This document shows, in pieces, positions 1 through 58,220 of a DNA stretch of 58,220 bases. The first letter of the stretch is position 1; the number at the start of each line of letters is the position of its first letter. The stretch lies in IMG/VR virus record IMGVR_UViG_3300043486_000004, positions 1 to 58,220 of that record, one strand, 5' to 3'. The translations under genes and the position numbers were made by a program. The notes under the pieces were generated by a model. The model did not search any database, was not told the DNA's origin, and saw only the letters and a list, made by a program, of their open reading frames with translations. Origin of the DNA: a virus (taxonomy: Duplodnaviria; Caudoviricetes).

Positions 1-82
1 CGCCGTCGCCCAGCTTCACGCCGTCGCCCAGCTTCACTGTAACTTGGCTCCCATCCGGATTTGTGTGCTTGATTGTTTTCAT
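1..82 (-). CDS. Hexapeptide-repeat protein, 5' part (runs off the window start)
   Basis: Reverse strand reads MKTIKHTNPDGSQVTVKLGDGVKLGDG and is preceded by CCACC-ATG. Nearly identical to the gene at the window end. Confidence 0.8.
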   Translation of the reverse strand, partial: MKTIKHTNPDGSQVTVKLGDGVKLGDG

Positions 83-106
83 GGTGGTTTCTGTGGTGGA
101 ATCGTT

Positions 107-346
107 CTAGGCTGCGAAGTGTACCATTGTTTGTGTGGTGGTGCGTTGGATTTCTGCGATTTCGCAAGCGACGGCTTCCAAGGTGTTTGCCAGACTGTGG
201 CTGCCTCGCGCTCTGTACACCGTGGCAAGGGTGAGTAGCTCGCGAGGGGTTTTCCCCTGGGCAGCGTATGCGGCTACTAGGGATTGGAAGCGTACCGTGT
301 TTTTTTCTGTGGTGGTGTTCATGGTGGTGGTGGTGGTGGTGTCCAT
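107..346 (-). CDS. Hypothetical early protein (poly-Thr N-terminus; alternative start at 322)
   Basis: MDTTTTTTMNTTTEKN...VHFAA, with AAACAAACACC-ATG upstream. Confidence 0.65.
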   Translation of the reverse strand: MDTTTTTTMNTTTEKNTVRFQSLVAAYAAQGKTPRELLTLATVYRARGSHSLANTLEAVACEIAEIQRTTTQTMVHFAA

Positions 347-360
347 GGTGTTTGTTTCTC

Positions 361-453
361 TCAGAGGCCCAGCGAGCGGACCACACAGCACAAGGGAACG
401 AGGAAGAGGCCCAGGATCGTAGCAAGGATGGCGAGTTTTGCGAGGGTTTTCAT
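361..453 (-). CDS. 30-aa hydrophobic (membrane) peptide
   Basis: MKTLAKLAILATILGLFLVPLCCVVRSLGL*, preceded by AAACAAAGCCACC-ATG like its neighbours. Below the ORF-track cutoff. Confidence 0.6.
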   Translation of the reverse strand: MKTLAKLAILATILGLFLVPLCCVVRSLGL

Positions 454-748
454 GGTGGCTTTGTTTGTGGTGGCTTGATGCTTTGTTTCTTGTGTTCCGT
501 ACCTACCACAGGTATCGACTGTCTGAGCCGGAACCCTAGAGGTATCCTTAGGATTTGTTTGCGTGATAGGCTTTCACCGATGTAAACCCATACACCGTAG
601 GTGGTTCGGATTGTAAATATGTTTGCGTGCTAGAACTAAAAGTGGGTATAACAGATGTAGTAGGCGCTGGAAGGCTTTAGCGGAGGGTAAACCCATGGTC
701 CTGTGGTGTTTTTATGGTGGACATTTTACAAGAAGTTTATAATGTTGT

Positions 749-1048
749 AACATGCCCATACGTAACAAAACCCTAACAAGTTGTAAGTGGGCTAGGGACA
801 TAGGGTTACAACTTTTTACAAAGCGCCCATAGGGGTACTAACTTCCCGTACGCCTTTCTTGTGCTGTGGCTTTAGCAGCATATCAACATGTAGCATTTAC
901 ATAGTGGTAAAGGCACAGCACAAGGGACTGGGGTCGAAAACTTATATGGGTATGGGCATGTTTGTGCTTTATTCTATAACTCCCCATGGTGTAAGGAGTT
1001 ACGGCAGATTTGGACTATGGGCGGAGGAAGGCAAAGTATGGGCATGTT
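749..1048. repeat. 13-mer AACATGCCCATAC x3
   Basis: Forward at 749-761; reverse complement at 950-962 and 1036-1048. Confidence 0.85.
858..924. repeat. 20-bp inverted repeat (18/20)
   Basis: CTTGTGCTGTGGCTTTAGCA (858-877) against the reverse complement of 905-924. CACAGCACAAGGGA occurs at both 384-397 and 914-927. Confidence 0.8.
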
Positions 1049-1692
1049 TACATCCATAAACCTCAGCAAACAATGTAAGTCTTTACTGAGGCCCATCTTA
1101 TGATTATCCTATTGTTTGTATAACAATTCTGTCATGTAAGGTATCTTTGACATTTGACATAAACCCCTGTTTTTAGGGGGTATGCCTATGTACAAAGGCC
1201 TCTTTTCAGGGGGTTTAGGTATATGTGGCAGCAAGTACCCCTCCCCTGCCCATGTCACCATAGCGTATATGGCGCATGTACCCCCATACATGAGGGGTAT
1301 AGCTATGTACTAAGGCAGGCGCATAGGTTAGAGCTAGCTGCCTATGGGTTATCCCTACAGAAACCCCTCTACGTCAAAGGTTTACGTAAGCACCAATTGC
1401 CCTATCTTGAATTGCGCGGAGAAAAAATCGGGGTATGAAGTTTTCGTGCCATGAACTACTGCCAAGCCACTCCCGGCGAGGACTTTGCCCAACAACAAGT
1501 GACACATGAACCATGCCATATCGTTTCCTCAGCAAAAACCAAGACAGGCCAAAATCCGATTCAGAGGTTTATGTCTCAGAAAATATAGGCGCACTAAAAA
1601 CACAATCCCGATGCTTTGCGCAGCAAACTACTCTTGACTTACAAAAGAAAAGGCTTGACGCCTTTCCCAGAGTCGAATACCCACGATGGTGG

Positions 1693-2820: not shown

Positions 2821-2824
2821 CCCC

Positions 2825-3061: not shown

Positions 3062-3111
3062 AGCCGTTGCCGCAGCCGCACGGTCCGTGTGAACCCAACC
3101 CAAACAAACAA

Positions 3112-3540
3112 ATGAAAACAATTGCCCTGATCTTCGCTGCTGTCACTCTGGCCGTAGTCGCCTGCACCGTCGCGTTGTCAAGCTGCATCGCGCCGAAGTA
3201 CAAGCCCAGCGTGCTGTTTCCTGCTGCTGCCCTGACCTGGCCCGCAGTGGAGGAAGACTTCGATCGAGGCATCGCGGATGGCATCTCGGATGGGGTCTTG
3301 ACCCAACAAGCGGCCGTAGCATTCAAGGCCGAAGCTGACAAGCTCGAGAACGGCTTGAACACCAAGAACCTGCCAGAGGTCCAGCTTGTGGCCTGGGGTA
3401 ACCTGAAGCCCTGGGCAGATCGCGGCATCGATGACAAGCTCGCAGACGGTGAGGTCGGCCCTGGTGTGGCGGCCTCGCTGCGAGAGCAGCTCACGAACTT
3501 CACTGAAACAATTGCCCAACTACAGGCTGTGTACCAATGA
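3112..3540 (+). CDS. Putative lipoprotein
   Basis: MKTIALIFAAVTLAVVACTVALSSC: signal peptide with lipobox-like Cys. AAACAAACAA-ATG start. Confidence 0.7.
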   Translation: MKTIALIFAAVTLAVVACTVALSSCIAPKYKPSVLFPAAALTWPAVEEDFDRGIADGISDGVLTQQAAVAFKAEADKLENGLNTKNLPEVQLVAWGNLKPWADRGIDDKLADGEVGPGVAASLREQLTNFTETIAQLQAVYQ

Positions 3541-4709: not shown

Positions 4710-5236
4710 TGCGCCAAGCCGGTGCGACCTTGGACCTCAAAACGCCGATGGACCTTGCCGATGCCCTGCATCTGCATCCCACGCCGCTCCAGAAGAGGGT
4801 CTTCACGGATCTGTACCGTGCGCGCATGTTCGTGTCTGAGATGGACGATAACCAGGAGCTGACCAAGGCCCTGGCGTTTTGTTTGCTGTGGCAGATCTTG
4901 TCCGTGGAGGGGTCCAAGGGCACGATTCTGGCCTCGAGCTACAAGGAAGGGCACGCAACGATGCGCTGGATTCAGGGCATCGCCATGCGAACAAATCCTA
5001 AGTTGGCCGACATTTCGAACGTCAGCCGGCGAAACACGCTGGAATTTGGCGCAGCCTCGGGCTGGAACATCAAATTCATCGACAACGATGCAGTCAAAGC
5101 ACGGCGGCGCGGCAAACACAGCCGCGCCGCTCTGATCCTTGGCGAGAGAAGCTCTGAGATCACCTTTGTAGAGGCGCTGACAGCCCTCACTGGTGCAATG
5201 GACCGTCAGAGCACACGACTTTTGCGTCTGTGGTGA
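4709..5236 (+). CDS. Degenerate paralog of the terminase ATPase domain
   Basis: Collinear by eye with the N-terminal domain of the adjacent TerL (PTPLQ, LLWQIL, WNIK, GKH, ILGERSS, TALTGAM), but Walker A and B are lost. Confidence 0.65.
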   Translation: MRQAGATLDLKTPMDLADALHLHPTPLQKRVFTDLYRARMFVSEMDDNQELTKALAFCLLWQILSVEGSKGTILASSYKEGHATMRWIQGIAMRTNPKLADISNVSRRNTLEFGAASGWNIKFIDNDAVKARRRGKHSRAALILGERSSEITFVEALTALTGAMDRQSTRLLRLW

Positions 5237-5242
5237 ACGCAG

Positions 5243-6703
5243 ATGTCAAGATTCGCCAGAACATTCGAACCCCTCTACGAGCGTTGGCGCAAGGACATCA
5301 AGCTCTTTGCCATTGAAGCGCTCAACTTCGACTATACCTGGCAGCAAGAACAGCTTTTTGATGCAGTGCAGTGGGAAGCGGACGCGCCCATGCACCTTCG
5401 CAAGAAGCGGATCGCTGTAGCATCGGGTCAAGGCCCAGGAAAAACGGCCGCAAGCAACGTAGTGGCCTTGTGGCGCTGTCTGCGCTTCCCCGATGCGCTC
5501 TGCATCGTCACTTCACCGTCGATGCGCCAGTGCAAACAGTGGATTGATGAAACAAAACGCTTGATGAAGAACGCGCACAAGATTCTGCGCCGTTTTATTC
5601 AAGTGTTCGACACCATGGTCCGCATCAATGGCGTCAAGATCTGGGGAATTCGCACTGCGACGGCCACGCGACCGGAAAATTTGCAAGGAATCCACGAGCA
5701 GCGCCTGACTTTCATTGCGGACGAGGCTTCTGGCGTCGCTCGCAAGATCATGGAGACCATCAAGGGCACGCTTTCAAACCCGGATGCGTTGTTTTTGTGC
5801 ATCGGCAACCCAAACACGACAGATTGCGAGTTCTACGATTGTTTCACTCAGTTTCGCGATCAGTGGCATTGCATGCGCTGGAATGCGGAGCACACAGCTC
5901 GAGATTATCCGCACATCGTAAGTCCCAGTCGCAACGCTGACCTCGCGAAAGAGTATGGGATCGACTCTGACGTGTACAAGATCCGCGTGAAGGGTGAGTT
6001 CCCGTCGCAGGACCCGAACAATGTCATGGGGATCGACGATTTGGTCTACTGCACGCGCACAAGCGTCCGTGGCTGTGCGTCGAACACAGAGATCATGGAG
6101 GTTCACAAGGCCTTCGGGATCGACTTCGCGCGTTTCGGCTCAGACTCGAGCGTCGTGGCGCGGCGCGTCGGCCTTGCGATCGTAGGCTTCAAGAGCTTCA
6201 ACAAGAAAGAGCCCATCGAAGTGGTGGACTACGCTTTCAAGGAACAATACGACCACAACTGGAAAAATGAAGACTGCTGGTTTGTTCCTGATACTGTTGG
6301 CATGGGGCAAGGCGTTGCGCACTCGTTCTGGGACGCCGGCAAGAACGTGTACGAGTTCCAAGCCCATGGTCGTGCCTACGACAGCGAAATGTTTGCGAAC
6401 CAAATCACCGAGGCGTGGTTTTTCACCCGCAGCCTGGTGCGTGAGCACATTTGCCATCTTCCCAATCGCCCGCGCTTGCTGAAACAATTGAGCACGCGGC
6501 AATACTACACGGACAAGAAGGGCAAGCTCGTAGTCGAGACCAAGGACGAGTGGAAGGACCGTCTCGAGACTGACGAATCGCCCGACGAAGCCGATGCCGT
6601 GGTGCAGGCGTTCTATCCTCACCTTGGGGAAGGTGCTAAGGTCTTGGCCGCCAACCGACACAAGTACGCGGTCGGTAGCAAGATCCGCAGGAGGGCGGGA
6701 TGA
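5243..6703 (+). CDS. terL: Terminase large subunit
   Basis: Walker A SGQGPGKT, Walker B IADEASG, GNP motif, RVKGEF, nuclease GIDFARFGSD and SPDEADA. Confidence 0.95.
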   Translation: MSRFARTFEPLYERWRKDIKLFAIEALNFDYTWQQEQLFDAVQWEADAPMHLRKKRIAVASGQGPGKTAASNVVALWRCLRFPDALCIVTSPSMRQCKQWIDETKRLMKNAHKILRRFIQVFDTMVRINGVKIWGIRTATATRPENLQGIHEQRLTFIADEASGVARKIMETIKGTLSNPDALFLCIGNPNTTDCEFYDCFTQFRDQWHCMRWNAEHTARDYPHIVSPSRNADLAKEYGIDSDVYKIRVKGEFPSQDPNNVMGIDDLVYCTRTSVRGCASNTEIMEVHKAFGIDFARFGSDSSVVARRVGLAIVGFKSFNKKEPIEVVDYAFKEQYDHNWKNEDCWFVPDTVGMGQGVAHSFWDAGKNVYEFQAHGRAYDSEMFANQITEAWFFTRSLVREHICHLPNRPRLLKQLSTRQYYTDKKGKLVVETKDEWKDRLETDESPDEADAVVQAFYPHLGEGAKVLAANRHKYAVGSKIRRRAG

Positions 6704-6948
6704 TCTGCACCAAGCCCGGATGTCAAGGGAAAATCAAAATTACCCACACCTACGTACACGGACGTGGGAAGTACCAGCGCGGCGTCTGTCTGGCCTGTGC
6801 TCGCGTCTACTGCCTGACGACGGCGATGGAGGAGGTCACCAGGCGCAGCCAGGGGGCTCGCGCCAAGGCACGCGGGGCGGCAATCAACGGCAAGGCCCTG
6901 CCGGCCGCAGGAGCGCGCCCTAGCGACGGGGGCGGGCCGCTCGTTTGA
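6700..6948 (+). CDS. Small Zn-ribbon protein (possible transcription regulator)
   Basis: CTKPGC...CLAC; ATGA overlap with terL. Confidence 0.6.
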   Translation: MICTKPGCQGKIKITHTYVHGRGKYQRGVCLACARVYCLTTAMEEVTRRSQGARAKARGAAINGKALPAAGARPSDGGGPLV

Positions 6949-7363
6949 CCGTATGGACCCCCGGACGCTGCGGGGGTTCCTGGCGCTTCCTAGGAGGCCG
7001 GGCCAGGCTGCCTTGTTCGGCTCTCTCGTCTTCGACCCCCTGAAGATGCCCACGGGCGCGGGCGGCCTCTTCGGCTTTGCCCTGGGTGTCCTGAGTGATT
7101 TTCTGGGATGCCACGCCTTGGAGGTACCCACGAGCGCGGTTGTCCTCCCCCACCTTGGCGACCGTTCCCTGTTCGGCTTTCTCGTCTGCGGCTCCCTGAA
7201 GGACACCTTGAGCACGGGCCGCAGCTTCCGCCCTCTCAGCGAGCGAATTAGTGGCCTGGTGGACGATCTCGACCTTTTTGTTTGTTCGAATAGAGACCCA
7301 CGCTGCGGCAATTGAGCCCACGAGCGTCGCAATCGACATGATCGTATCGGATGTTTGACTCAT
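6920..7363 (-). CDS. Membrane-anchored protein with internal repeat
   Basis: TM segment IMSIATLVGSIAAAWVSI, then KKVEIVHQATNS and three (A)RAxG(V/Y/H)LQG repeats. Confidence 0.65.
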   Translation of the reverse strand: MSQTSDTIMSIATLVGSIAAAWVSIRTNKKVEIVHQATNSLAERAEAAARAQGVLQGAADEKAEQGTVAKVGEDNRARGYLQGVASQKITQDTQGKAEEAARARGHLQGVEDERAEQGSLARPPRKRQEPPQRPGVHTVKRAARPRR

Positions 7364-26912: not shown

Positions 26913-26955
26913 GGGTGATTCTTCAGGGTGCTTGGGGTTTTTGTTTGTTTAGGCG

Positions 26956-26981: not shown

Positions 26982-27004
26982 ATCCGATGTCAGTGCGATT
27001 GGTC

Positions 27005-36548: not shown

Positions 36549-36701
36549 TCATTTGAGCATCCCGTAGTGCTCAGAACAACTTGCAATTATGTAGACTCCA
36601 TTGTCGCTGTTATAGATACATTGAACAATGATGCAGAGCTTGGTGCATTGGAAATCACACGTCTCTCGCTGTTGGACTATCGTTGCAGTGTCGCCTATCA
36701 C
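36549..36701 (-). CDS. Small Cys-containing hypothetical protein
   Basis: GTGA overlap with the polymerase stop; 50 aa. Confidence 0.35.
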   Translation of the reverse strand: MIGDTATIVQQRETCDFQCTKLCIIVQCIYNSDNGVYIIASCSEHYGMLK

Positions 36702-41810: not shown

Positions 41811-42197
41811 TCAGGCGGCCTTTTTCTTTTTGCTGCGCGGCTTGGACTTGGCTTTCGTCGGGGCTTTGTTCGTCACCGGGGCTTTCTTCGCCGTTGGCTT
41901 CACAGCCCTCGGTTTCTTGGCCTTCGTCTTCGGCTTCGATTTTCCCTTCGGCGCAGGCTTGGCTTTGGCACGCTTGCCCGTGGGACCTTGCTTCTTCGCC
42001 AGCTTTTGTTCCTTGGGATCTTCAGACTGCCGGCCGCGTGAGCGCATCTTGATCTTCTGGCGATGCAGCTCGCGCAGGATCGTGACCGGGGCCAAGCCGT
42101 AAAGCTCAGCGACCTTGTAGACGGACATCTTTTTGTTCACGTACAAATCGTGAACGTCCGCCTGGTGTTTCTTGTCGAACTCGATTCTCTGCGACAT
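41811..42197 (-). CDS. HTH DNA-binding protein with histone H1-like Lys/Ala/Pro tail
   Basis: LYVNKKMSVYKVAELYGLAPVTILRELHRQKIKMR (HTH), then KAKPAPKGKSKPKTKAKKP...KKKKAA. Confidence 0.8.
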   Translation of the reverse strand: MSQRIEFDKKHQADVHDLYVNKKMSVYKVAELYGLAPVTILRELHRQKIKMRSRGRQSEDPKEQKLAKKQGPTGKRAKAKPAPKGKSKPKTKAKKPRAVKPTAKKAPVTNKAPTKAKSKPRSKKKKAA

Positions 42198-42205
42198 GTT
42201 TGCCT

Positions 42206-42610
42206 CTAGAACTTCTTGCCGTGTTTGTGCGGCCGGGTCAGGTTGTATTCGTACTTCAGCCTTACCGCTCGGCCGATGTCGATTTTGCGATGCGCCGCGA
42301 GGTCGAACACGCGGATCATAATGTCGGCCATTTCCTCTTCCTCGAGAGTCAGGCCAATCGGCTTGCCGCTGATTTGTTTGCCGCAATCGGCTGTGGGATC
42401 TTTGCGGAAAGCCTCGAGGAGTTCACTGGCTTCTGAATGGATCAGCGCCACCTTCTCGGCCAGGTTCGGCTTGGGGTCGTCCCAGAAGCCGTGCTCAGCA
42501 GAGCAGCGATGGCAGGCATCGCGCCATGCCGACAGCGCCGCAGCTTGAGATCGCATGTACTCCTCGTACTGCGACGCCAGAGGCTGCGACGGTGAAAGCA
42601 TCGGGTCCAT
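42206..42610 (-). CDS. MazG-like nucleotide pyrophosphohydrolase
   Basis: LIHSEASELLEAFRK, EEEMADIMIR, KYEYNLTRPHKHGK. Confidence 0.88.
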   Translation of the reverse strand: MDPMLSPSQPLASQYEEYMRSQAAALSAWRDACHRCSAEHGFWDDPKPNLAEKVALIHSEASELLEAFRKDPTADCGKQISGKPIGLTLEEEEMADIMIRVFDLAAHRKIDIGRAVRLKYEYNLTRPHKHGKKF

Positions 42611-44565
42611 TAGCCGAGACGCTCCACAACAAGCTCCGCGTGCGGCGCGAGCGCGTTGAACAAGGCGACCAGATCGAAGTCGTTCGTGCCACCAGGGAAC
42701 ACCACGATGGTGCGCCCAAGACCCTCGCAGATCGCCGGCCCAGCTTGCTTCAGGCGATCCTGGCGCTTCTTCTGATCCAGCTCCATGAAGTGCTCGGCAC
42801 CCATCTCGGCCGCGAGGTCCGCGCCGTAGCGCACCATCAGCTCTTGGGCCGTCACCATGGGGCGCGTCGGCCCGCGCAGCATCGCGGTGCCCATGAAGAT
42901 CCAGGGGCCGGCACGGGGCCGCCCGTTCGCCTTGGGGCCTGCGTCGGGCTCCTCGGCATAGTTCTTTGCCGGTCCCGCTGCGGCAGCGCCCCTGCGGGCT
43001 CCCACGCGGGCCTTGGGGGCGGGCTCATCCTCGGCCTCTTCTTCCTCGGCCTCTTCTTCGTCCTCGTCAGGGGCCGCGTCTGCGGCAGCTTCCATGCCTT
43101 CCCCGTCAGCGGACCAGAACAGGGGTGCCCCCAGCTCGGTCAGGGCATCCTCGAAGTCGTCCTTCGCCGTTGCCGTCATCGGCTCGGTTGTCAGCTCGAC
43201 CTCGTACATGCTTGACATTGCCGTCTTGTTTTGCTTGGCCTTGCCGTCGCAAATCGGGCAGGGGCGACCCTTGGAGTTGAAGCCCTTGCCTTTGCAGGCG
43301 TTGCACTTCGAGTTGGCCCACGGCGGGGGAACCTCGGATGACTCCTCGGCCTCGGCTTCTTCCTCTTCCGGCTCTTCGTCCTTGGGGTTGATGGCAGGCT
43401 TGGCCTTGCCCTTTGTTGCCGCAACGGCCGTTTTCGTGGTCGTTTTGGTGTCCTTGCGACCTGCGAAGATGTTCGTTCCCATAGTCTCTTTCTTTTTGTT
43501 TGCTCGCTTCTTAGGGCGAAGGGGTAGGTTCGGTCTTTGTTTTGCGGCCCGTTGCGCGTTCAATCGTTCGACTTTGTTTCTGTATACCTCAGGTGTAGCC
43601 CTGCGTCCACAGATTTCAAGGAAGGGGCATCCCCCGAACGCGCTACAAGCTTCCGCCGTAGCCGGCCTCGGTGTGTCCTGCCATTGTTTTATACCACGGA
43701 CACGCAACATGTCCAATGTTTTTTGTTTTAGCCAGCTCCCGTGCTCGGCGATGCGCTTGGCACCGATGAGGGATTCGACCTTGCGAACCCCCTTCGGGTC
43801 CTCGAACTTGGGGAATTGATTGTGTCTGACCTTGACCGGGCCAGTGTATTGCTCCAGTTGGGAGATGGCCCAGGCGTAGGTCAGGAGCTGTTGATTGTGC
43901 GCGACATCGTTCGGGCTGGTTCCGTCGCCGGAAACATAGTGCTTCTGGACTGGCACCAGGTTGCCGTTGGCGTCCGTCTGGCCAGGTTGCTTCAGGTAGC
44001 GCTTGGAAGACTCGCCAAAGCTCTTGTGGTCGTGGATCTCGGGGATGGGGCGCTCGCTCGAGCGGGGCAGATAGAAGTCCAGGAAGCCTGTGAGGATCAC
44101 CCCCTTGGTGAGGGGCAGATTGATCTCGTGCTCGACACCCACGTCAGGGTGCCGCTCGAGGATGCCCTTCTCGATCGCGTCCTGAAACAATCGACGGATC
44201 AGGCGGGCCTCGTTCGGCGTGACTGAAGCGGACTTTTTTCCCTCTGTGATTGTTTCCCAGCCCTCAGGAAAAATCTCTACCGGGTCGTTTGGACTCTGGC
44301 CGATGAAGGGGCCATCGGTGTAGATGTCTCCGTAATCAGGCTGGTGAACAATAGCCCAAGGCGTCTCTTTCCAAGGCACACGGCCGTTGTCCGTCGCGAG
44401 TAGCCAGCGCTCGATACAGGCGTGCAGCACTGTGCCGAACGTGAAGTAAGGCTTCTCCGCAGTCGGCAGCTTGAGGGTCTTCTCAAACCACCACTTGCGG
44501 TTGCACAGATCGAACGTCTCGAATTGAGACGCTGAGCTGTGTATCGGCTTCGCCTTGGCGATCAT
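42610..44565 (-). CDS. PD-(D/E)XK (RecB/Cas4-like) exonuclease with acidic linker and Zn-finger C-terminal domain
   Basis: SASQ..CNRKW, FGTVLH, GFLD, DHKS, QLLTY, CSAFGGCPFLEIC; later CNAC..CPIC. Confidence 0.85.
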   Translation of the reverse strand: MIAKAKPIHSSASQFETFDLCNRKWWFEKTLKLPTAEKPYFTFGTVLHACIERWLLATDNGRVPWKETPWAIVHQPDYGDIYTDGPFIGQSPNDPVEIFPEGWETITEGKKSASVTPNEARLIRRLFQDAIEKGILERHPDVGVEHEINLPLTKGVILTGFLDFYLPRSSERPIPEIHDHKSFGESSKRYLKQPGQTDANGNLVPVQKHYVSGDGTSPNDVAHNQQLLTYAWAISQLEQYTGPVKVRHNQFPKFEDPKGVRKVESLIGAKRIAEHGSWLKQKTLDMLRVRGIKQWQDTPRPATAEACSAFGGCPFLEICGRRATPEVYRNKVERLNAQRAAKQRPNLPLRPKKRANKKKETMGTNIFAGRKDTKTTTKTAVAATKGKAKPAINPKDEEPEEEEAEAEESSEVPPPWANSKCNACKGKGFNSKGRPCPICDGKAKQNKTAMSSMYEVELTTEPMTATAKDDFEDALTELGAPLFWSADGEGMEAAADAAPDEDEEEAEEEEAEDEPAPKARVGARRGAAAAGPAKNYAEEPDAGPKANGRPRAGPWIFMGTAMLRGPTRPMVTAQELMVRYGADLAAEMGAEHFMELDQKKRQDRLKQAGPAICEGLGRTIVVFPGGTNDFDLVALFNALAPHAELVVERLG

Positions 44566-44569: not shown

Positions 44570-47206
44570 TCAGTCTTGTCCAGAGTGCGCCATCGCAGCC
44601 GCGATCTTGTACTTCCCGTTGGGTTGTTCGCTCAGCAACCGCTCGACCTTGCCACAGACGGTGCCGTAGCGAAGGGCCTCTTCCAAGAGGATGCCCAAGT
44701 CTATCTCGACCCAGCGCGCTCGGCCAGTGCCAAAGCTCAGTTTTTTGTTTCCGTTGGGACTTGTGATCGCAAACTGACGCAAAACCTGGCCTGTGCGAGG
44801 CAGGCTGATCTCCTCGTGGATGCCGTGCATAGGCCCCATGATGTAATCGTGGACGCCGGCAGCCGTGACGAATACTCGGCTCTTCCAAATCGTGAGGGCA
44901 TTTTTGTTTCCGTTGTTCCCTTCGATCATCTTGATGAGGGCCTTCACCACGGCTTGTGAGCTGGAGCTACGCAGGCGCATGCCGCGCACAAGCGAGGTCT
45001 CTACTTCACCCTCCACCAGGAGCCGGCCGCTGCCGTACGGGTCCGTTGTGCGGTTCTCGTACAGCCAACGGATGTGGCCAGCGAGTTTGTACTGGCTCTT
45101 GTGCTTGCCCTGGACCCAGCCTGAAGTGAAGCGATAGTTTCCGTGCGCTGTCAGGTAATCGCGCGCCTTTGGCCCAACCTCGATCGACAGCAAGCGAATC
45201 TCCACGGCCCGAATGTCATCGTCGGTGAGGTCACGGTGCCCGACGATCGAGCGGAGAATGTCTTTGTCATTCGACGTAAACAAAATACGAGGGTAGATCC
45301 TCGCCATGAACGGGTTCTGGTACATGGAGCGGATCATTACGTTTCCGCCAGAGACCATCGTTCGGAATGCTTGATCGAGCGGTAGCGCTTCGTCGCTCTT
45401 GATGTTCGGCACGCCTTCGTCGCAATTCACCACGGGTGTGTCGAGCAAGCCGGCGTTGTATTTGCCAAGGGCCGTGCCATTGTTGAACTTTTCGCCGGCA
45501 AAGCATTCGGCCAGGCCTGCCGCAAGCATCCCTTTACCTGTGCCTGGGGCTCCGAACAGATTCAGCGCGCAGATCGGCGCGTTTGTTTCCAAGGCCCAGG
45601 CCAGCCACATGATTCCAAGGTCGTACTTGTCCCCAAAGAAGATCTCGAGCCACTTCTCTACCTCTTCGTCATACTTCGGCTCAACCTTTTTGTTTAGGCT
45701 GTGGACAGGCATGTTCAAGAGCCGATGCCCAGGATCACCTTCGATGTAAGCGGTCTTGATCGTGGCTGAACAAACAATGGCCGAGATCGGCGTGGCGTGG
45801 TCGTTCAAGATCGATTGCGCGCTGCGCACAGTCCATGTCTTGCCGCGCATCTCGTGGGTCTCAATCACATTCTCCATGCCCAGCTCGCGAATCATCGGAA
45901 TGAGCATCGAATCACCCACGGGCCGGATGTTGTAGCTGCCGTCTGTCCGCATGATGTGGTGCAAGCGACCGTCGCTTGCGACCATGCGCTGGCGGAACCA
46001 GGCATCGGCCTCTTCCTCGTCGTCAGGAACATCCTCTGGCCTGTCTGCCTTGATTTGTTTGATTAGTTCTTCGCGAGTTTGCTTGCCCTTCTGGATCGCC
46101 TTCTCGGCCTCGCGATTCTCTGCCTCGATCTGGGCTGACTCGTTGGCCCACATCCGGCAGATGATGTCCCAGGCGATTTGGTGCCAGTCATTACCTTCCT
46201 CATCCTCAACCTGCATTTGCTCCAATGCGCTGAAGAGCAAGGCATAGATACCCTCAGGCGTTGCTTCAGGCTGGCGCGCTGTCATGCCGATGATCTGACC
46301 AGAGATCTTTACGATTGCATTGTTTCTGCCGTTGAACTTCTTGGAGTCCAGCTTGGCATGCCTGAAACAAATGTCGTAGGACTCGCGGCCGTCCAGGTAC
46401 TTCTTGGCTACCTTTACCCAGTCGCTATCGTAGCTCTTTTTGTTTCCTCCGACCTTGACTAGTAGAGCATCAACCTCTTCGACGCTGGGTAGCTCCCCAC
46501 TGTAGGCATCGACCTCGGCGAACACATCGCCCTCGGTCTTGTCGTTTGCCTCGATCGTCTCCGGATCAAGCGCTGGCCCGCCGTTCAAGAAAACAAATCG
46601 ATCGTCGTTTGAGTAGCGCCGGCCGGTGTCCTCGCGCACCGTGCGAGGCAGACGGAATAGTCGTGTCCAATCGTCGCAGGACTTGTCCAGCTCGATCCCT
46701 GCCGCCTTGTATTTATCGCGGATCGAACGCGCCATCGACTCAGCGGTGAGATGGTCAACCGGCGTTTCCAGCACATAAACAAATCGACTGCCGTGGAGGG
46801 TCGTGTACCAGCAAGAGGGAGGAGGGAGGTCGGCCTGAGCGAGCAAACTGGTGAACTCGCCCAGGCCTTCCTCGGTCCACTCTTGCTTAGCGTCCCCTTG
46901 CTTCGGCAAATCGTGGTCAAACACCATCATGGTGACAGCGACTTTGCCGCCCTTGCGGAGCAGCTCGGCCGTGAAACCAGAGCGTTTCGTGACTCGAGCG
47001 TACAGCGGTTCGCCGTCCTCGTCCTCGAGTCTGTAAACAATAAAGTGTGCGTCTTGGTCCCAGTCGCGCTTGAAAGCTTCCTCTAGCGGAAGGTGTTCAT
47101 CGCATAGGTATCTGCCGGCTGTATCTGGGCCGAGGTCCGAGAGCTTGTGGGCTCCAGGAGCTTTCTCTCGGTCGAAAATAATGCCGACGATCGGACCAGA
47201 TTTCAT
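44570..47206 (-). CDS. Primase(-polymerase)/helicase
   Basis: N-terminal DHD, YTTLHGSR, DWTRLFRLP (AEP-like); P-loop GAPGTGKG, CDEG, FTSN. Track start 47242. Confidence 0.85.
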   Translation of the reverse strand: MKSGPIVGIIFDREKAPGAHKLSDLGPDTAGRYLCDEHLPLEEAFKRDWDQDAHFIVYRLEDEDGEPLYARVTKRSGFTAELLRKGGKVAVTMMVFDHDLPKQGDAKQEWTEEGLGEFTSLLAQADLPPPSCWYTTLHGSRFVYVLETPVDHLTAESMARSIRDKYKAAGIELDKSCDDWTRLFRLPRTVREDTGRRYSNDDRFVFLNGGPALDPETIEANDKTEGDVFAEVDAYSGELPSVEEVDALLVKVGGNKKSYDSDWVKVAKKYLDGRESYDICFRHAKLDSKKFNGRNNAIVKISGQIIGMTARQPEATPEGIYALLFSALEQMQVEDEEGNDWHQIAWDIICRMWANESAQIEAENREAEKAIQKGKQTREELIKQIKADRPEDVPDDEEEADAWFRQRMVASDGRLHHIMRTDGSYNIRPVGDSMLIPMIRELGMENVIETHEMRGKTWTVRSAQSILNDHATPISAIVCSATIKTAYIEGDPGHRLLNMPVHSLNKKVEPKYDEEVEKWLEIFFGDKYDLGIMWLAWALETNAPICALNLFGAPGTGKGMLAAGLAECFAGEKFNNGTALGKYNAGLLDTPVVNCDEGVPNIKSDEALPLDQAFRTMVSGGNVMIRSMYQNPFMARIYPRILFTSNDKDILRSIVGHRDLTDDDIRAVEIRLLSIEVGPKARDYLTAHGNYRFTSGWVQGKHKSQYKLAGHIRWLYENRTTDPYGSGRLLVEGEVETSLVRGMRLRSSSSQAVVKALIKMIEGNNGNKNALTIWKSRVFVTAAGVHDYIMGPMHGIHEEISLPRTGQVLRQFAITSPNGNKKLSFGTGRARWVEIDLGILLEEALRYGTVCGKVERLLSEQPNGKYKIAAAMAHSGQD

Positions 47207-53403: not shown

Positions 53404-54321
53404 TCATGCTTCCTTTGTTTCTTGGTATGGCACAGGTTTTAGGTAACCGGCGCGCTCCAGCGATTGCAGCGCGCTACGGATTGCACAGGCAGGGCCTACA
53501 GCCATGCGCGCATTGTCCGCCTCTTCCTTTGGGGCGAGCTTAGCGAGCAGTTTGAACGCGATTGTTTCGAACGCTTCGGCAGTCACTTCGATGATCGGGA
53601 AGTGGCTACAGTCCTCGCTGTGATTCAGCCGCGCATTATCGTTCCAGATCTGCGGCCGTCCGCACTCCGGGCAATCGTCCGAACACTTGCCTTCCTCGCG
53701 CATGTAACTCTTCGTATCGAGGAGTTTGTTCCAGTCGGCCGATAGATCGGCGCGCATGGCAGCCGCCATTGTTTCCAGTGCTTCGGCTGCCTTGTCTGTG
53801 CCGGCGAAGGCGTTAGGAAGTGTCTTGGCGCGCTCGCGGAACTTGGCCATGTTCTCAGGAGTCGCCGGCCCTAGTTCCTGCCACGTCCAAAGGTGCGCTG
53901 TGCCGAGTTGCAATCGAACGCACCCCTCGAGAACTTTCCAGCTCCAGCCTGAGCCAGAGTGTCGCGAGCGCTCCAGTCCGATGGCCTTGGAAAGCACTTG
54001 ATCGGCCAGGTTGGCGAATTTCCAATAGCCCCCTGCGTTGTCTTTCGCGCCTCCGAAAGTTCCGCCCCAATGTCCGTGAAAGTACAGCACGCGCGCAGCG
54101 TAGGCGAGGCGATCGGGCGGGATGGCCTCGAACCGCTCGCGCAGCTCTTCAGGCATAGGCACGTCCAAGTCCTGCCCTTGGTGGAGATCTTTGTACTTGG
54201 CGCTACAGAGCGCCCCGTAGATCCACAGTGCGTCGGCGCTCAAGGCCTTCAGCACCGGCATGATGAGGTCCGCGAGCGCGGCCTTGTAGTCGAATCGTAA
54301 TTGTTTCTGTGTGGTTCCCAT
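53404..54321 (-). CDS. Hypothetical early protein
   Basis: 305-aa ORF with CPEC motif. Confidence 0.75.
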   Translation of the reverse strand: MGTTQKQLRFDYKAALADLIMPVLKALSADALWIYGALCSAKYKDLHQGQDLDVPMPEELRERFEAIPPDRLAYAARVLYFHGHWGGTFGGAKDNAGGYWKFANLADQVLSKAIGLERSRHSGSGWSWKVLEGCVRLQLGTAHLWTWQELGPATPENMAKFRERAKTLPNAFAGTDKAAEALETMAAAMRADLSADWNKLLDTKSYMREEGKCSDDCPECGRPQIWNDNARLNHSEDCSHFPIIEVTAEAFETIAFKLLAKLAPKEEADNARMAVGPACAIRSALQSLERAGYLKPVPYQETKEA

Positions 54322-54364
54322 AGTCGAGTGTGGGTCAGTTGTTTGAGGTCAAGTCCTGAGCTGA

Positions 54365-54392
54365 AGTGTACTGCGTCCGCGCCACATTTCAA
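54365..54392 (-). promoter_or_regulatory. Sigma70-like early promoter
   Basis: TTGAAA-N16-TACACT. Confidence 0.55.
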
Positions 54393-55192
54393 ATCGGATC
54401 GTTATAAACGACGATCAACGGCGATTGTTTGAGAGGCACGGGAGGCATAGGATTGTTTGTGTTGAGTTGTTCGATTGCATATTCCACTGCCGCCTCTCCA
54501 GATAGTCTACGGGGAATCGGTAGCGTGAAAGTGTCCCAAGTATGATCGAGCTTCGCGCGGAGGAATTCCACAGGGCGCGTACCTTCCTCTTGCGGGAACA
54601 CGTTCAACGCAATGAGTCCGGCGCAGGTGTTGGGTACGTCCTTTGCGTAGCCCTCGCATGCCTCGCTGAAGAATGCCCAGCGCTCAAACAAATTCGCATC
54701 GTCTGTAAGGCGTGTTCCATCGTGAAAGCATGCCCCTTCCACGGGAGAATCTTTGAGGCTGGGTAAATCGTGAGGCTCCAGTGGCGAGCGGTCCCATTCT
54801 TCCACGTCGGGCAGCCCAGCTACACAGAGCCAGCCGTTTGACCGTCCTTCTAGTGTGACTTTGATATCGTCCCCAAACAAAGCTTTGGCTTCTTCCTCTG
54901 CGATTTCGAAGTTACTTGCGCAGGCAGAATTCCACAGTTCATCGAAAGTATCCCCAGCGTCGTTATCACGCCAGTTTTCTAGCCATTCCCGCGTGAATTT
55001 GTTTCCGTCTGCGGTAGAGTCCATTTCGCCGGCCATGCTGGCCAGCTCGCGCCATTCCTCAGGCGAGATTGCTTCAAATCCGTGGCGTACCTTGACGTTC
55101 ACACAGGGAATCTTTGTGTGATTTATGCACCTCTCGCGAACTTGTACTGTTTCCGCGTTGAAAGTTCGTGCTGTGGTGGTTTGCTTGTCCAT
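54389..55192 (-). CDS. Acidic hypothetical early protein
   Basis: AGGACTCAAACA-ATG start; EGRSNGWLCV motif. Confidence 0.7.
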   Translation of the reverse strand: MDKQTTTARTFNAETVQVRERCINHTKIPCVNVKVRHGFEAISPEEWRELASMAGEMDSTADGNKFTREWLENWRDNDAGDTFDELWNSACASNFEIAEEEAKALFGDDIKVTLEGRSNGWLCVAGLPDVEEWDRSPLEPHDLPSLKDSPVEGACFHDGTRLTDDANLFERWAFFSEACEGYAKDVPNTCAGLIALNVFPQEEGTRPVEFLRAKLDHTWDTFTLPIPRRLSGEAAVEYAIEQLNTNNPMPPVPLKQSPLIVVYNDPI

Positions 55193-55229
55193 TGTTTGAG
55201 TCCTGAATCCTAGTTGGGAGTCCCTAAGT

Positions 55230-55511
55230 CTAGCCTTGTTTTTGTTTCCGTGCGGCCAGTTGCTCATTATTTTCGATTTGCACCACGCCGCAGTCCATGA
55301 CTACGCGCTTGCCTACATCGATCACGAGGAAGCGCCCACCAAGGGGATGAGGCTCGCCTACCATGTCGCGTGTCACTGTGAAGTACACGACTGGCGCGAG
55401 CCAGCTACGGGCCTGTAAGCGTATGCGGTCGCTCAGTGCGTCGCGTGTATCACACTCTGCGCTCAGTCGCGCGTAAGTTTCCTCTCGTTCCTCTTTGGTA
55501 TGTCGATTCAT
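55230..55511 (-). CDS. Hypothetical protein
   Basis: AAACAAA-ATG start overlapping the upstream stop. Confidence 0.6.
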   Translation of the reverse strand: MNRHTKEEREETYARLSAECDTRDALSDRIRLQARSWLAPVVYFTVTRDMVGEPHPLGGRFLVIDVGKRVVMDCGVVQIENNEQLAARKQKQG

Positions 55512-55867
55512 TTTGTTTGCTTGCTTGTGTGTAGTTGCGTGCTCGCCGGCCGTACCAAAACAAATGCGCCGGCGTGCCAGTCCCACAGATCGAAACTCTC
55601 AAGGATCGACCTATCACCACTGTAGGCCTGTGCGAGTCGCTTGGTGAATTTGGGGTCAGGGTCAAGGCCCGTGTATGCGTCCGGGCCGAAAGCTTCCCAG
55701 TAGCTGATATCATTCTGGCGCATGCCGTAATGCTGCATTACCTTTGTCACCCCCGCTAATGTGGTACGCCAGTTAGGCTGTGCCATTGTTCCAGATCCTG
55801 AGGGTACGCGCAGGAAGAATAGTCGCGCGCCCGGATGTGTGGGCAGGATGTACGGCGGACTTTTCAT
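55508..55867 (-). CDS. Hypothetical protein
   Basis: AAACA-ATG start; ATGA overlaps. Confidence 0.65.
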   Translation of the reverse strand: MKSPPYILPTHPGARLFFLRVPSGSGTMAQPNWRTTLAGVTKVMQHYGMRQNDISYWEAFGPDAYTGLDPDPKFTKRLAQAYSGDRSILESFDLWDWHAGAFVLVRPASTQLHTSKQTK

Positions 55868-56127
55868 TGTTTGGGATAACGCGTGCCTTCCATGTACTTT
55901 GCGCCGGACTCTTCCATTGCCTTTGTTTCTGTGTGTAGCAATCGCTCTGCGCGTGCTTCCTTACCGTACGCATGCCGGATTGCCCCCTCTAAGGATTTGA
56001 TCGTACTGCGGAGTTTCTTCAGAGTCTGGGGAGCTAGTTGAAATCCAGCAAGCACTAGCCGCACGTCGCGCAATTGCTCAAGACATTGTTTTAGTCTCTG
56101 AGCTTCCGAGAATCTTTCCTGTGCCAT
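55864..56127 (-). CDS. Hypothetical protein
   Basis: LRSTIKSLEGAIRHA helical motif. Confidence 0.7.
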   Translation of the reverse strand: MAQERFSEAQRLKQCLEQLRDVRLVLAGFQLAPQTLKKLRSTIKSLEGAIRHAYGKEARAERLLHTETKAMEESGAKYMEGTRYPKQ

Positions 56128-56273
56128 TGTTCAAGTCCTGTGTTCAAGTCCGTTGTTTGAGTCCCGAGGGTAAGTCCCAAGGGACAGTTGTAAGGGGGCA
56201 AGCTGCCTCGCTACCACACTTAGCAGCCTGCCCTAGCCGTGCGAGTTCCACCACAGGCGCGCACGGCTGTGCG

Positions 56274-56744
56274 TTATTGTTTCTCAGGCAGGGTTCCGTT
56301 AGCTAGGTACTGGACACAATCCACACAGGCGCGCTCCCCATGCTGGATTTTTCCCTGTGGGTCGATGTAGTGCCACACTTCGAAATCACCCCCTAGCCGG
56401 CTGTCGCAAATGTCACAGCCACCCCAGGAGAAAAAGGCCTCAGAGAATACGCTGCCTGTGGACCAGTCTCGAGCGAAAGCTTCCCTAGCGGCTAGCTGTG
56501 CCTCTTCCTCTGTGCGGAAATAGTTTGTCATCCTGGGATCGTTAGGGTCCAGGTACTTACCTTTGCGCTCTGTTTTGTTTGCATCAAAGGTCCAGCGCTC
56601 GAAGACTCCAGACTCCTCTTCCGTTGTTTCTCTGACGGTGTACTGGGGAAAATCTCCCATGCAAGTGTCACAACCTGGACACACTCCAGTGGATATTGCC
56701 TCGCAGCCTTTCAAATTGTGCGTGACCCGTTCGACGTAATTCAT
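56274..56744 (-). CDS. Zn-binding early protein
   Basis: CPGCDTC, FSWGGCDICDSRLGG, CVDCVQYLANG. Confidence 0.75.
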   Translation of the reverse strand: MNYVERVTHNLKGCEAISTGVCPGCDTCMGDFPQYTVRETTEEESGVFERWTFDANKTERKGKYLDPNDPRMTNYFRTEEEAQLAAREAFARDWSTGSVFSEAFFSWGGCDICDSRLGGDFEVWHYIDPQGKIQHGERACVDCVQYLANGTLPEKQ

Positions 56745-56773
56745 TGTGGTAGTTTTGTTTCTGTGTCCAGCCG

Positions 56774-57187
56774 TTACATGCTGTGGATTTTGTCGTCGTC
56801 GCCGATGTGCAGATCTCGGCTGCCCATTGCTTCAGCAGCCTTTGACAGTCGCTCGCCTACATCCTTGGGATAGCCTCGATCCCAGAAGCCGGCCCCATGG
56901 CCATTGCGAGTAAGCCACAAATCGTGTCCATTCCTTTCATCGGCTGTGTAGTGCTCGCCGTTTGTTTCTGTGCCTCCTGAGGCATGGTTCAAATCGTCAT
57001 CAGTACACGAGGCCTCGAAGGCCTTGCAATCGGCGATTGCTTGCTCGATTGTTTCGGGAGCTAAATCGGCTAGGCTGTGGTTTTCGTCCATCGGCTCAGA
57101 GTCTTTGCCTGTGGTGCTTGCCCACAGAGCACAGACCAGATAGCCATACGTGAAATTGTCTACTTTGTGCTTGCCTATTGTTTTCAT
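56774..57187 (-). CDS. Conserved phage early protein
   Basis: YLVCALW...GHDLWLTRNGHGAGFWDRG. Confidence 0.8.
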   Translation of the reverse strand: MKTIGKHKVDNFTYGYLVCALWASTTGKDSEPMDENHSLADLAPETIEQAIADCKAFEASCTDDDLNHASGGTETNGEHYTADERNGHDLWLTRNGHGAGFWDRGYPKDVGERLSKAAEAMGSRDLHIGDDDKIHSM

Positions 57188-57213
57188 GGTGGATTGTTTC
57201 TGTGGTAGTTGCT

Positions 57214-57438
57214 TCAGTCGTCAGAGTGTGGGCAATCTGCCGCGCAGTGTTCCTTGTTCTGGCATCGCTCGCAAGGCATGGAATACTCAGGCTCGAACAC
57301 AAGGCAGGGTATTTCCGTGCCTGCCTCGCAGCCGGCAGACTCGCAAGCATGGCAGAGCGCTAGATCTTTGCCGATTGCGATTTCCATACAATCCCGGCAG
57401 GCACAGGGTTTGTATCCTCCATCGTCGTTTGTTTGCAT
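57214..57438 (-). CDS. Cys-rich small protein
   Basis: CACRDC, CHAC, CERC; CCACC-ATG start. Confidence 0.7.
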   Translation of the reverse strand: MQTNDDGGYKPCACRDCMEIAIGKDLALCHACESAGCEAGTEIPCLVFEPEYSMPCERCQNKEHCAADCPHSDD

Positions 57439-57446
57439 GGTGGGCC

Positions 57447-57634
57447 TCAGTTTGTTCTGTAGCGCAGGATTCCATCCGGGTCGATGATTTCCTTGCCATC
57501 ATAGCCGGCTAGGAAATGCGCTCTGCCATCCTCTCGAATTGCTGCCTCGATTGCTTTTTGTTTGTTCTCACCAAGCAAGGCAGCGACGATAGGACCGACA
57601 TCTTCGCACAGCCGTTCCTGTGCTGCTGTGCCAT
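57447..57634 (-). pseudogene. Frameshifted/truncated member of a DGRxHFLxxYDGxE phage family
   Basis: The motif-bearing frame has no ATG after the upstream stop; the nearby CCACC-ATG is out of frame. Confidence 0.5.
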
Positions 57635-57670
57635 GGTGGTAGGTAGGCTCGCGGTTGTGGTGGGTTTGTT

Positions 57671-58220
57671 TCAGACTTGGAAGTATGCGCGAGCACAACG
57701 GACGATCGCGCTAATTTCTTCGTTTACAGGCGAGTAGTGTTTCTTGCATAGCCTTGTAATTGTTTCTTCGTTCCATTCAAGCAAGGGCAGGGATTCACAG
57801 CCGTAGCGCAAAGTATCGCGCGAACAATTCCAAGAATAACTATATTGACCGGAAAGAATCTCGCGAGAAGTTTTGAGCGTCACGCCGTTGCCCAGCGTCA
57901 CGCCGTTGCCTAGCGTCACGCCGTTGCCCAGCGTCACGCCGTTGCCCAGCTTCACGCCGTTGCCCAGCGTCACGCCGTTGCCCAGCGTCACGTCGTCGCC
58001 CAGCTTCACGCCGTTGCCCAGCGTCACGCCGTTGCCCAGCTTCACGTAGTTGCCCAGCGTCACGCCGTTGCCTAGCGTCACGCCGTCGCCCAGCGTCACG
58101 TCGTCGCCCAGCTTCACGTCGTCGCCCAGCTTCACGTCGTCGCCCAGCTTCACGCCGTCGCCCAGCTTCACGCCGTCGCCCAGCTTCACTGTAACTTCGC
58201 TCCCCTCCGGAGTGGTGTGC
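57671..58220 (-). CDS. Hexapeptide-repeat (left-handed beta-helix) protein, 5' truncated by the window end
   Basis: HTTPEGSEVT followed by 17 V(K/T)LG(D/N)(G/D/Y) repeats and a C-terminal LRYGCE..LLEW domain. Confidence 0.85.
   Translation of the reverse strand, partial: HTTPEGSEVTVKLGDGVKLGDGVKLGDDVKLGDDVKLGDDVTLGDGVTLGNGVTLGNYVKLGNGVTLGNGVKLGDDVTLGNGVTLGNGVKLGNGVTLGNGVTLGNGVTLGNGVTLKTSREILSGQYSYSWNCSRDTLRYGCESLPLLEWNEETITRLCKKHYSPVNEEISAIVRCARAYFQV
57875..58189. repeat. 18-bp tandem repeat, ~17.5 copies (coding)
   Basis: CACGCCGTTGCCCAGCGT-type units encoding the hexapeptides. Confidence 0.9.

Follow-up and report, generated by a model that had tools for sequence, protein, structure and literature searches.

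Dispersed short words with which the hexamer AAACAA (TTGTTT on the other strand) in the tailed-phage genome IMGVR_UViG_3300043486_000004 (Duplodnaviria; Caudoviricetes) can be compared include the stoperators and dispersed operators of phages, represented by the repressor sites of Cluster A mycobacteriophages and the C1 operators of P1, and the DNA uptake sequences (DUS/USS) of Neisseriaceae and Pasteurellaceae, for which we know of no role in any phage. Chi-saturated phages are described by Zheng et al. 2025 (PMC12315714), namely coliphage LLS, P1 and Pseudomonas phage MD8, with 20 of 23 Chi copies in LLS and 32 of 32 in MD8 lying in one orientation. Prim-pols from the AEP (archaeo-eukaryotic primase) class are reported (PMC8718748) to need short template words, which are GTG for pRN1 ORF904, and GTG(A/G) and TTTGGTTA for NrS-1. 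A nick-associated word, WACTRTGAC, occurs in ~13 copies in Pseudomonas phages tf and Rembedalsseter, within a set of 61 related phages (Dougherty et al. 2025, PMC11780129). The window analysed here is the whole 58,220-base record, a single contig rated 100% complete, from a tailed phage of a soil metagenome. No end repeats were found in the 58,220-bp record. The genome is present in two DNA runs from one soil sample, which may be its source, and no RNA run containing it is listed among the public runs. Contigs from the runs match the window except for two differing letters close to the end of a contig and an insertion in a minor contig, with no strain variation from which conservation of the word could be read.

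The + strand of this window contains 57 copies of AAACAA and 134 of TTGTTT, giving 191 copies or one per 305 bp between position 73 and the last copy at 57760-57765. These counts bear out an earlier sequence-only reading, which had tallied about 190 copies by hand (about 133 TTGTTT and 57 AAACAA, one per ~300 bp) and had seen the word usually extended by A or T, as is the case for 169 of the 191 copies. The GC content of the window is 57.5% rather than the ~59% given there, and base composition predicts 14.6 copies over both strands instead of ~12, which lowers the excess from the proposed ~15-fold to ~13-fold. Markov models predict 24.3 (order-1), 28.0 (order-2), 62.2 (order-3) and 144.4 copies (maximal-order, order-4), and the excess over the first two is 7-8-fold. 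The word ranks first among hexamer outliers at orders 1-3 (z = 34, 31 and 16) and second, behind CTCGAG, under the maximal-order model. Equal enrichment of its one-letter neighbours, which had been named as a possible refutation, is not seen: AAACAG (17 observed, 27 expected), AAAGAA (30 observed, 26 expected) and AAAAAA (10 observed, 24 expected) lie near or below expectation, and only GAACAA (75 vs 32) and CAACAA (56 vs 32) are mildly enriched. As these two are raised while the other neighbours are not, the strict core is AACAA, itself present in 329 copies against 127 expected.

Copies were assigned to classes with a set of 64 rough gene calls covering 50,781 nt, in which some starts are trimmed and a few open reading frames (ORFs) are missed (e.g. 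24862-25380 and 32937-33533), so that class counts could shift by a few. With this set, 99 copies are coding sense, 43 coding antisense and 49 between genes or on gene edges, consistent with the earlier statement that both orientations occur inside genes. Synonymous shuffling within each gene yields 23.8 ± 3.9 sense and 6.1 ± 2.3 antisense copies, shuffling of codon order yields 14.6 and 3.7, and swaps preserving the protein, the codon usage and every dinucleotide still yield only 39.6 ± 4.2 and 10.1 ± 2.4. When all 4,096 hexamers were compared with 200 synonymous shuffles, the four strongest outliers were TTTGTT, AAACAA, TTGTTT and AACAAT, so the word stays at the top after codon-preserving shuffles, its loss from the outliers having been named as another possible refutation; the next hexamer independent of this family is CTCGAG, with 68 copies in genes against 20.9 expected.

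Such an excess might in principle arise with no reader at all, as a by-product of mutation bias, of a GC drop relative to related phages, or of the avoidance of other words. At least 20 words are almost fully avoided in the window, including AAGCAG (1 observed, 43 expected), which forces other Lys-Gln codings, and the GC content is 57% here against 62-69% in the nearest relatives (loci L001, L004, L012 and L124). However, a synonymous shuffle forbidding 15 avoided words still yields only 26.6 sense and 6.4 antisense copies against the observed 99 and 43, which rules out a by-product of word avoidance. AT-rich hexamers are under-represented as a class (0.84 and 0.34 of expectation) and no AT-rich word outside the AAACAA family exceeds 39 copies; this under-representation rules out a funnelling of AT-richness into a few allowed words. 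Since the sequences flanking the word are also common to both strands and to all contexts, as described below, we regard an origin without any reader as extremely improbable.

The enrichment extends to every strand, frame and context in which it could be assessed. Sense copies are spread over the three frames as 31/33/35 and antisense copies as 21/14/8, with a fold excess of 4-7x for coding sense and 7-12x for coding antisense. Oriented spacers (3,467 nt) hold 23 sense copies against 2.0 expected and one antisense copy against 0.22 expected, and both orientations are enriched in every genome block having enough expected copies. The strand bias of 134:57 and the sense bias of 99:43 follow from base composition, as the null models themselves give a ratio of ~4:1. 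The full site, AC-N-S-AAACAA-W, is common to sense, antisense and intergenic copies: A is found at position -4 in 41, 48 and 61% of sense, antisense and spacer copies, C at -3 in 37, 67 and 59%, S at -1 in 74, 71 and 76%, and W at +6 in 86, 92 and 87%. AC occupies positions -4/-3 in 55 of the 191 copies against a background of 5.5%. At position 1 of the word the preference runs A > G > C >> T, a graded pattern of the kind expected of a binding protein, and flanks shared by all classes would most simply be accounted for by a single reader whose footprint spans roughly one turn of the helix.

The spacer copies raise the possibility that the word acts in RNA, as an unstructured A/C-rich ribosome-loading element for mRNAs that lack a Shine-Dalgarno sequence, with the copies inside genes serving the same ribosome-loading purpose. 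Consistent with this, about nine genes open as AAACA-ATG, several more have the word at most 50 nt upstream, the spacer excess is in the sense orientation, and sense copies outnumber antisense copies inside genes. This sense bias is, however, already predicted by base composition (23.8 vs 6.1 expected), and the excess of antisense copies is at least as large (43 vs 6.1), with Leu-Phe written as TTG-TTT at ten times expectation. Sense copies are moreover even along genes (21/17/24/17/20 by quintile), and words resembling Shine-Dalgarno sequences are avoided inside genes (AAGGAG 0 vs 27.7), from which it follows that the host uses Shine-Dalgarno pairing. A role as a ribosome-loading element alone is thus very doubtful. 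At AAACA-ATG starts the final letters of AAACAAT come with the start codon, which makes these starts a cheap place to write the word; AAACAAT is followed by G in 29 of 75 cases.

Two further observations concern gene starts. Many genes have no upstream Shine-Dalgarno-like sequence, and their starts follow AAACA or, in the early region, a Kozak-like CCACC; the Shine-Dalgarno-like words AGGAGG (8 vs 31) and GGAGGA (10 vs 34) are, like AAGGAG, avoided on the sense strand of genes. In the stretch 54300-56200 (- strand) GGACT(T/C) recurs in early-gene spacers, for example as GGACTTGACCTC-AAACAA and GGACTC-AAACA-ATG, and may be a promoter element.

The word is also written against the codon preference of the phage. 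Among 54 Lys-Gln pairs, 31 are coded AAA-CAA (7.7 expected), 18 AAG-CAA, five AAA-CAG and none AAG-CAG, and of 59 Leu-Phe pairs 21 are written TTG-TTT, where 2.0 would be expected (Fisher p = 2e-5). The sequence-only reading held that the word is built from codons that this genome otherwise seems to avoid; this applies to AAA (28% of its codon family), TTG (18%) and TTT (20%) but not to CAA (51%). Its two examples in terL, AAA-CAA at 6482 and TTG-TTT at 5789, are both in frame 0. A cost to proteins is visible at the 52 copies lying in proteins with at least three aligned relatives, where mean amino-acid identity to relatives at the word codons is 0.369, compared with 0.475 ± 0.035 at random same-frame positions of the same gene (p = 0.001), and the majority peptide of the relatives lies under the word in only 4 of 52 cases. 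Many copies arose through conservative changes, among them LY to LF, seen three times in the polymerase and the helicase; the word was also created by KD to KQ (protease), IDK to INK (portal), ARK to ANK and TDP to VNK. This drop in identity and the small number of majority peptides indicate that the word is written by synonymous choice together with tolerated replacements. Given that enrichment is similar in either orientation, in every frame and between genes, that flanks are alike, that codon pairs are coupled and that amino acids are replaced, the data support the view put forward in the sequence-only reading, that the word is a signal on the double-stranded DNA itself which is selected in addition to the protein code. 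This selection maintains the ~190 copies in spite of codon preference and in part to the detriment of protein sequence.

Along the genome the sites are non-palindromic singletons, with a coefficient of variation of gap length of 0.91 and numbers of short gaps as in a Poisson process. No periodicity at 3, 10, 10.5, 11 or 21 bp was found across the copies, nor any preferred distance between copies, nor any inverted pairs. This disfavours dimeric operators and phased arrays, whereas singleton, non-palindromic sites with Poisson-like spacing fit a monomeric reader. Density varies between gene classes: head and tail genes have 1-2 copies per kb, replication genes 3.5 and early genes 4.5, and single early genes of the block 53415-57765 reach 6-11 per kb; the 31 copies previously counted in this block were found again. 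Copies are densest over ~6 kb around the record ends. There are indeed none in the major capsid or decoration genes, as had been noted, and none in 39002-39511; these are the three genes of highest GC3 (0.79-0.81). The capsid-gene desert is nevertheless not significant on its own, because the largest gap between copies (1,369 bp) is within Poisson expectation for 190 gaps. The overall density pattern is as expected of many weakly selected, additive sites in competition with codon selection. The sites and genes concerned are as follows.

3102-3121, + strand: three copies, overlapping or next to one another, where gene 3112-3540 begins, AAACAAACAA-ATG-AAAACAA
5243-6703, + strand: terL
5789-5794, - strand: antisense copy in terL, frame 0, TTG-TTT (Leu-Phe)
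6482-6487, + strand: sense copy in terL, frame 0, AAA-CAA (Lys-Gln)
26951-28086, - strand: word-free stretch spanning the major capsid gene
27005-28057, - strand: major capsid gene
28122-28871: decoration gene
37538-37543, + strand: antisense copy in the DNA polymerase gene, at a Leu-Phe pair common to 19 of 20 relatives
43496-43728, - strand: five sense copies within 233 bp in the PD-(D/E)XK nuclease gene
53415-57765, - strand: densest block, small early-type genes of unknown function, 31 copies of which 28 are in gene-sense orientation

The copy at 37538-37543 represents synonymous choice alone, since 19 of 20 relatives share Leu-Phe at that place. Taken together, strands, flanks, codons and spacing lead us to propose, tentatively and at less than even odds in our own estimate, that the word may be the site of a phage-made, sequence-specific, monomeric DNA-binding protein. 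Among the three options that the sequence-only reading had listed (a genome-coating or binding protein, a Chi-like or self mark, and a modification target), this is the best fit, although it is unproven.

A separate feature near one end of the record is an AT-richer non-coding region at 560-1500 (1.3 kb), which lies between divergent genes and contains many short repeats. Its most AT-rich patch holds a convergent pair of word copies, at 1068 (+) and 1112 (-), 38 bp apart. This region may be an origin or control region.

Related loci were found by alignment of the DNA polymerase, each with up to 10 kb of flank per side, and comprise 78 IMG/VR loci (26-54% identity), 5 loci in genomes of the Genome Taxonomy Database (GTDB) and 80 JGI metagenome loci, 163 in total, some of the metagenome loci being IMG/VR contigs. 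The best metagenome locus has 66% polymerase identity over the C-terminal 288 residues. AAACAA saturation is absent from all 163 loci. In the 78 IMG/VR loci the highest excess is 6 copies against 1.3 expected (L055) and AAACAA is never the top hexamer, and in loci L079-L163 a more than threefold excess is seen only in L120 (9 vs 2.5) and L126 (6 vs 1.9). Because none of the sampled relatives' loci shows saturation, the word appears private to the lineage of this phage; its closest known relatives (63-66% polymerase or primase identity) lie in public-run assemblies, outside the 163 loci. Private words of the relatives themselves were sought by ranking k-mers in loci of at least 12 kb among L001-L083, for which the best 25 are listed. 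The top k-mers of the two inspected loci, L047 and L052, are local tandem coding repeats rather than dispersed words, and L051, L053, L065 and L071 look similar in the table only. In L047 they come from a 2.3-kb one-strand array at 4900-7200 of six-base units (GACCGA, GACCAA, GTCCGA etc.). GC3 is 0.65-0.8 in the present phage compared with 0.8-0.97 in L001 and L012, and the drop in GC suggests a move to a host of lower GC. Sequenced phages are more distant: the best match of the capsid has 32% identity (Marinobacter phage PS6), the polymerase has a single match at 24.5% and the primase has none.

The survey of possible hosts counted SAAACAAW and a reversed control in 301 Planctomycetota, 251 Pseudomonadota and 2 other genomes, its four starting genomes being those that hold relatives' loci, and the resulting tables were inspected by eye. 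In the phage SAAACAAW is present in 128 copies (2.2 per kb), and none of the 554 bacterial genomes comes near this density; the densest has ~0.7 per kb with a ratio to control of ~1.5, and the highest ratio to control, ~4, is found in a genome with 0.04 copies per kb.

Gene content bears on the remaining explanations, and the further features concerned, together with other recognisable genes, are given below.

16409-20740, - strand: tape measure gene
24862-25380, - strand: HNH endonuclease ORF in the head-tail connector region (phrog_20891, E = 7.5e-24)
30132-31742, + strand: portal gene
32937-33533: weak match to a Holliday-junction resolvase family
33537-34127: zinc-ribbon protein
34124-35020, - strand: 298-aa protein, full-length match to PHROG family 6247 (labelled DNA topoisomerase), E = 1e-105
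35020-35673: exonuclease (second nuclease besides PD-(D/E)XK)
36698-38914, - strand: family-A DNA polymerase
39774-41807, - strand: SNF2-type helicase
42610-44565, - strand: PD-(D/E)XK nuclease
44570-47206, - strand: AEP primase-helicase, 878 aa

No tRNA genes were found in the window, and no integrase or repressor family was found among the 69 ORFs scanned against PHROGs, in which most early proteins are without any family. A PDB sequence search with three phage proteins returned no match, and an NCBIfam search nothing useful.

One of the options raised earlier was that the word is a host Chi-type signal, read by a RecBCD/AddAB-like or other host enzyme and accumulated by the phage, thereby blunting degradation or recruiting host recombination. 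Chi-saturated phages exist, and the word is densest over the ~6 kb around the record ends, with its T/G-only form commoner on the G+T-rich + strand. The extreme avoidance of restriction-type words described below also fits, as the avoidance of so many such words indicates that host nucleases press hard on this genome. Against this, Chi is strongly polar in the phages for which orientation counts are quoted above, whereas here the minor orientation is enriched 7-fold, as much as the major one, and the two are interspersed in every region. Chi-rich phages are without recombination genes of their own, whereas this phage has a PD-(D/E)XK nuclease, a second exonuclease and a weak Holliday-junction resolvase match. 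The density is in addition six times that of Chi in LLS, and the bacterial genomes sampled fall well short of it. The Chi-like option is accordingly disfavoured, and we consider it quite unlikely.

The presence of an AEP primase-helicase makes it conceivable that the word is instead the template recognition or start site of this enzyme, 5'-W-TTGTT-T-3' on the T-rich strand specifying a short primer and saturation allowing priming almost anywhere on either strand. Sites of the T7 and T4 primases have a strict core with a looser outer base, a layout that the strict 5-mer core of the word and its looser outer base resemble, and enrichment on two strands fits priming on both. The protein encoded at 44570-47206, in which DUF5906 is present, folds in a structural model (pLDDT 86) as a PrimPol domain joined to a D5-type SF3 helicase, with helices at 294-388 following the catalytic domain. 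In AEP primases it is a helix-bundle domain that reads the template word, on single-stranded DNA. Foldseek (E = 1e-8 to 1e-5) retrieves African swine fever virus (ASFV) PrimPol 8iqi (E = 1.4e-8), the NrS-1 C-terminal region 6k9e, monkeypox virus (MPXV) E5, vaccinia D5 and the SaPI5 primase-helicase. Across 39 primase homologs D97, D99 and D179 are invariant and H138 is nearly so, a pattern read by eye as AEP motifs, and AEP prim-pols of this class are those reported to need short template words (PMC8718748). However, among the first 83 relatives' loci 40 encode a primase ortholog, with full-length identity of up to 54%, and neither these loci nor the later ones have a saturating word; moreover, the known AEP words have 3-4 letters and are not known as genome-enriched. 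We therefore regard a primase site as possible but unlikely.

A further possibility is that a sequence-specific enzyme acts at the word, either modifying a base, as a methyltransferase or otherwise, or nicking the DNA. Type III, Type IIG and BREX methylation sites are typically non-palindromic, 6-7 bp long and have an adenine near the 3' end, a shape that the word shares. The phage encodes the HNH endonuclease at 24862-25380 and the phrog_6247 protein at 34124-35020, and nick-associated private words occur in phages (PMC11780129). Those nick words, as described there, are present in ~13 copies and on one strand only, however, and the phrog_6247 protein is also encoded in relative L080, which is without the saturating word. 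A modification target would leave the enrichment itself without explanation, and no methyltransferase family was found among the 69 ORFs compared with PHROGs, except for a weak phrog_1530 label (E = 8.5e-9) on a protease-like protein. The modification option of the sequence-only reading thus finds no support, and this whole class of explanations appears very unlikely.

On inspection by eye, the 34124-35020 protein contains two motifs, RxxYY and a DxD/Toprim-like GDHDPSG, that call to mind Topo VI-A/Spo11. Pfam, NCBIfam and PDB sequence searches returned no match for it, and among the first 83 relatives' loci just 2 have a homolog.

The wider vocabulary of the genome is unusual in other respects. 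Relative to order-1/2 Markov models, avoided words (observed/expected) include TTAA (0/150), GGCGCC (2/78), CAGCTG (0/52), CCGCGG (0/46), GTCGAC (0/45), TGATCA (0/43.5), CTGCAG (0/41), GAGCTC (0/35), CACGTG (0/34.5) and GACGTC (2/35.5), as well as the asymmetric CAACCA (3/39) besides AAGCAG. Relative to synonymous shuffles, GAACTG (2/25), ACCGCC (1/24), ACGCCC (1/24), CGGTGG (0/18), CATCAC (1/16) and GCGGTG (0/16) are avoided in genes. This avoidance looks like that of a very large set of restriction-type sites. Palindromes enriched relative to order-1/2 Markov models, with both strands counted, are GCCGGC (160/70), CGGCCG (148/66), GATC (940/553) and GTAC (336/159), and CTCGAG is enriched also in relative L013.

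Returning to a phage-made DNA-binding protein as the tentatively preferred explanation, one lineage-specific monomeric protein would land on (AC-N-S)-AAACAA-(A/T), with the strict core AACAA. Each site would contribute little and more sites would be better, so that copies would pile up where coding constraint is weak (early genes, spacers and tolerant protein positions) and be kept out of the most codon-biased genes. More speculatively, the protein might mark or coat the phage chromosome and set it apart from host DNA, which at this GC is expected to carry roughly ten times fewer copies per kb; protection, compaction or the directing of enzymes to phage DNA are conceivable purposes. In a particular form of this idea, which we rate as unlikely though worth stating, the word would be a private, sequence-coded self-mark, read by a phage protein every ~300 bp on either strand with no need for base modification, and would shield phage DNA from nucleases (the phage's own included) or steer replication or recombination enzymes. 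Judged from its sequence features, the most obvious candidate reader, itself speculative, is the following.

41811-42197, - strand: 128-aa protein, putative N-terminal helix-turn-helix and a 65-aa Lys/Ala/Pro-rich tail

At its N-terminus this protein gives matches to the N-terminal portion of HNH-endonuclease families in PHROGs, including phrog_7545, which is related to the family of the HNH ORF at 24862-25380. In Atlas the N-terminus resembles the modules with which homing endonucleases of the GIY-YIG, HNH and LAGLIDADG types bind DNA, matches that are leads only; homing-endonuclease DNA-binding modules bind asymmetric sites as monomers. No homologs were found in the relatives' loci or in IMG/VR.

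Several points weigh against a phage-made reader in general or against this protein in particular. Nothing ties the protein to the word: its own gene contains no copy and no operator-like cluster was found in front of it. Its helix-turn-helix family matches are below curated cut-offs and its Atlas model has a pLDDT of 0.57. A host-made reader is also conceivable. The phage moreover carries an AEP primase of the kind known to need a template word, and we know of no described phage protein that uses ~190 sites per genome.

If the proposal is correct, the phage would organise or protect its chromosome in a manner so far undescribed for viruses; in the full text of the literature searched there is no description of the AAACAA word in phages or of such saturation. 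A DNA-level code would then dictate part of the codon usage of a phage, and even some of its protein sequence, with a bearing on phage genome design, recoding and host prediction from k-mers. The system is suited to experiment, with a short word, a large excess, word-free relatives as controls and few candidate readers.

Set beside the known systems, the word shares some properties with each. Like DUS/USS, which are orientation-independent, occur about once per kb in coding DNA, are written by codon choice and act additively, it is found in both orientations inside genes; DUS/USS are chromosomal tags of competent bacteria read by uptake machinery, however, whereas no sampled bacterial genome carries AAACAA at high density. 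Stoperators resemble it in that one asymmetric site, recognised by one phage DNA-binding protein, is dispersed genome-wide, but they measure 13-17 bp, number in the tens, are mostly intergenic and transcription-oriented, and are found in temperate phages that have a repressor. The present genome has a 7-11-bp site in 191 copies, 142 (74%) of them inside called genes and in both orientations, and no repressor or integrase among the scanned ORFs. A translation-leader element would be sense-only and near starts, unlike the present word, whose antisense copies are enriched and whose sense copies are even along genes. With AEP primase words there is the likeness that this phage encodes the same structural class of enzyme, for which a short asymmetric word readable on either strand would fit; the AEP words described have 3-4 letters or form a single 8-letter site and are not reported to saturate genomes, and relatives with orthologous primases show no word, unlike the expectation for an AEP primase word. 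The nick-associated words are likewise lineage-private, conserved inside and outside genes and of unknown function, but they have 9 letters and ~13 copies on one strand in 61 phages, whereas the 191 copies here are spread over both strands and the relatives are free of the word. The Chi phages share with this genome a short non-palindromic word that is the top over-represented oligomer, lies inside genes and exceeds what codon usage explains. Their Chi has 8 letters, occurs ~once per 1.9 kb, nearly always in one orientation and clustered toward one end; its reader is a known host enzyme, and the phages that carry it lack recombination genes. The word described here has 6-7 letters (up to 11 with flanks), occurs once per 305 bp with both orientations equally enriched, and is found alongside nuclease genes; by analogy, a self-mark of this kind would be a phage-owned counterpart of the role that Chi plays for bacterial chromosomes.

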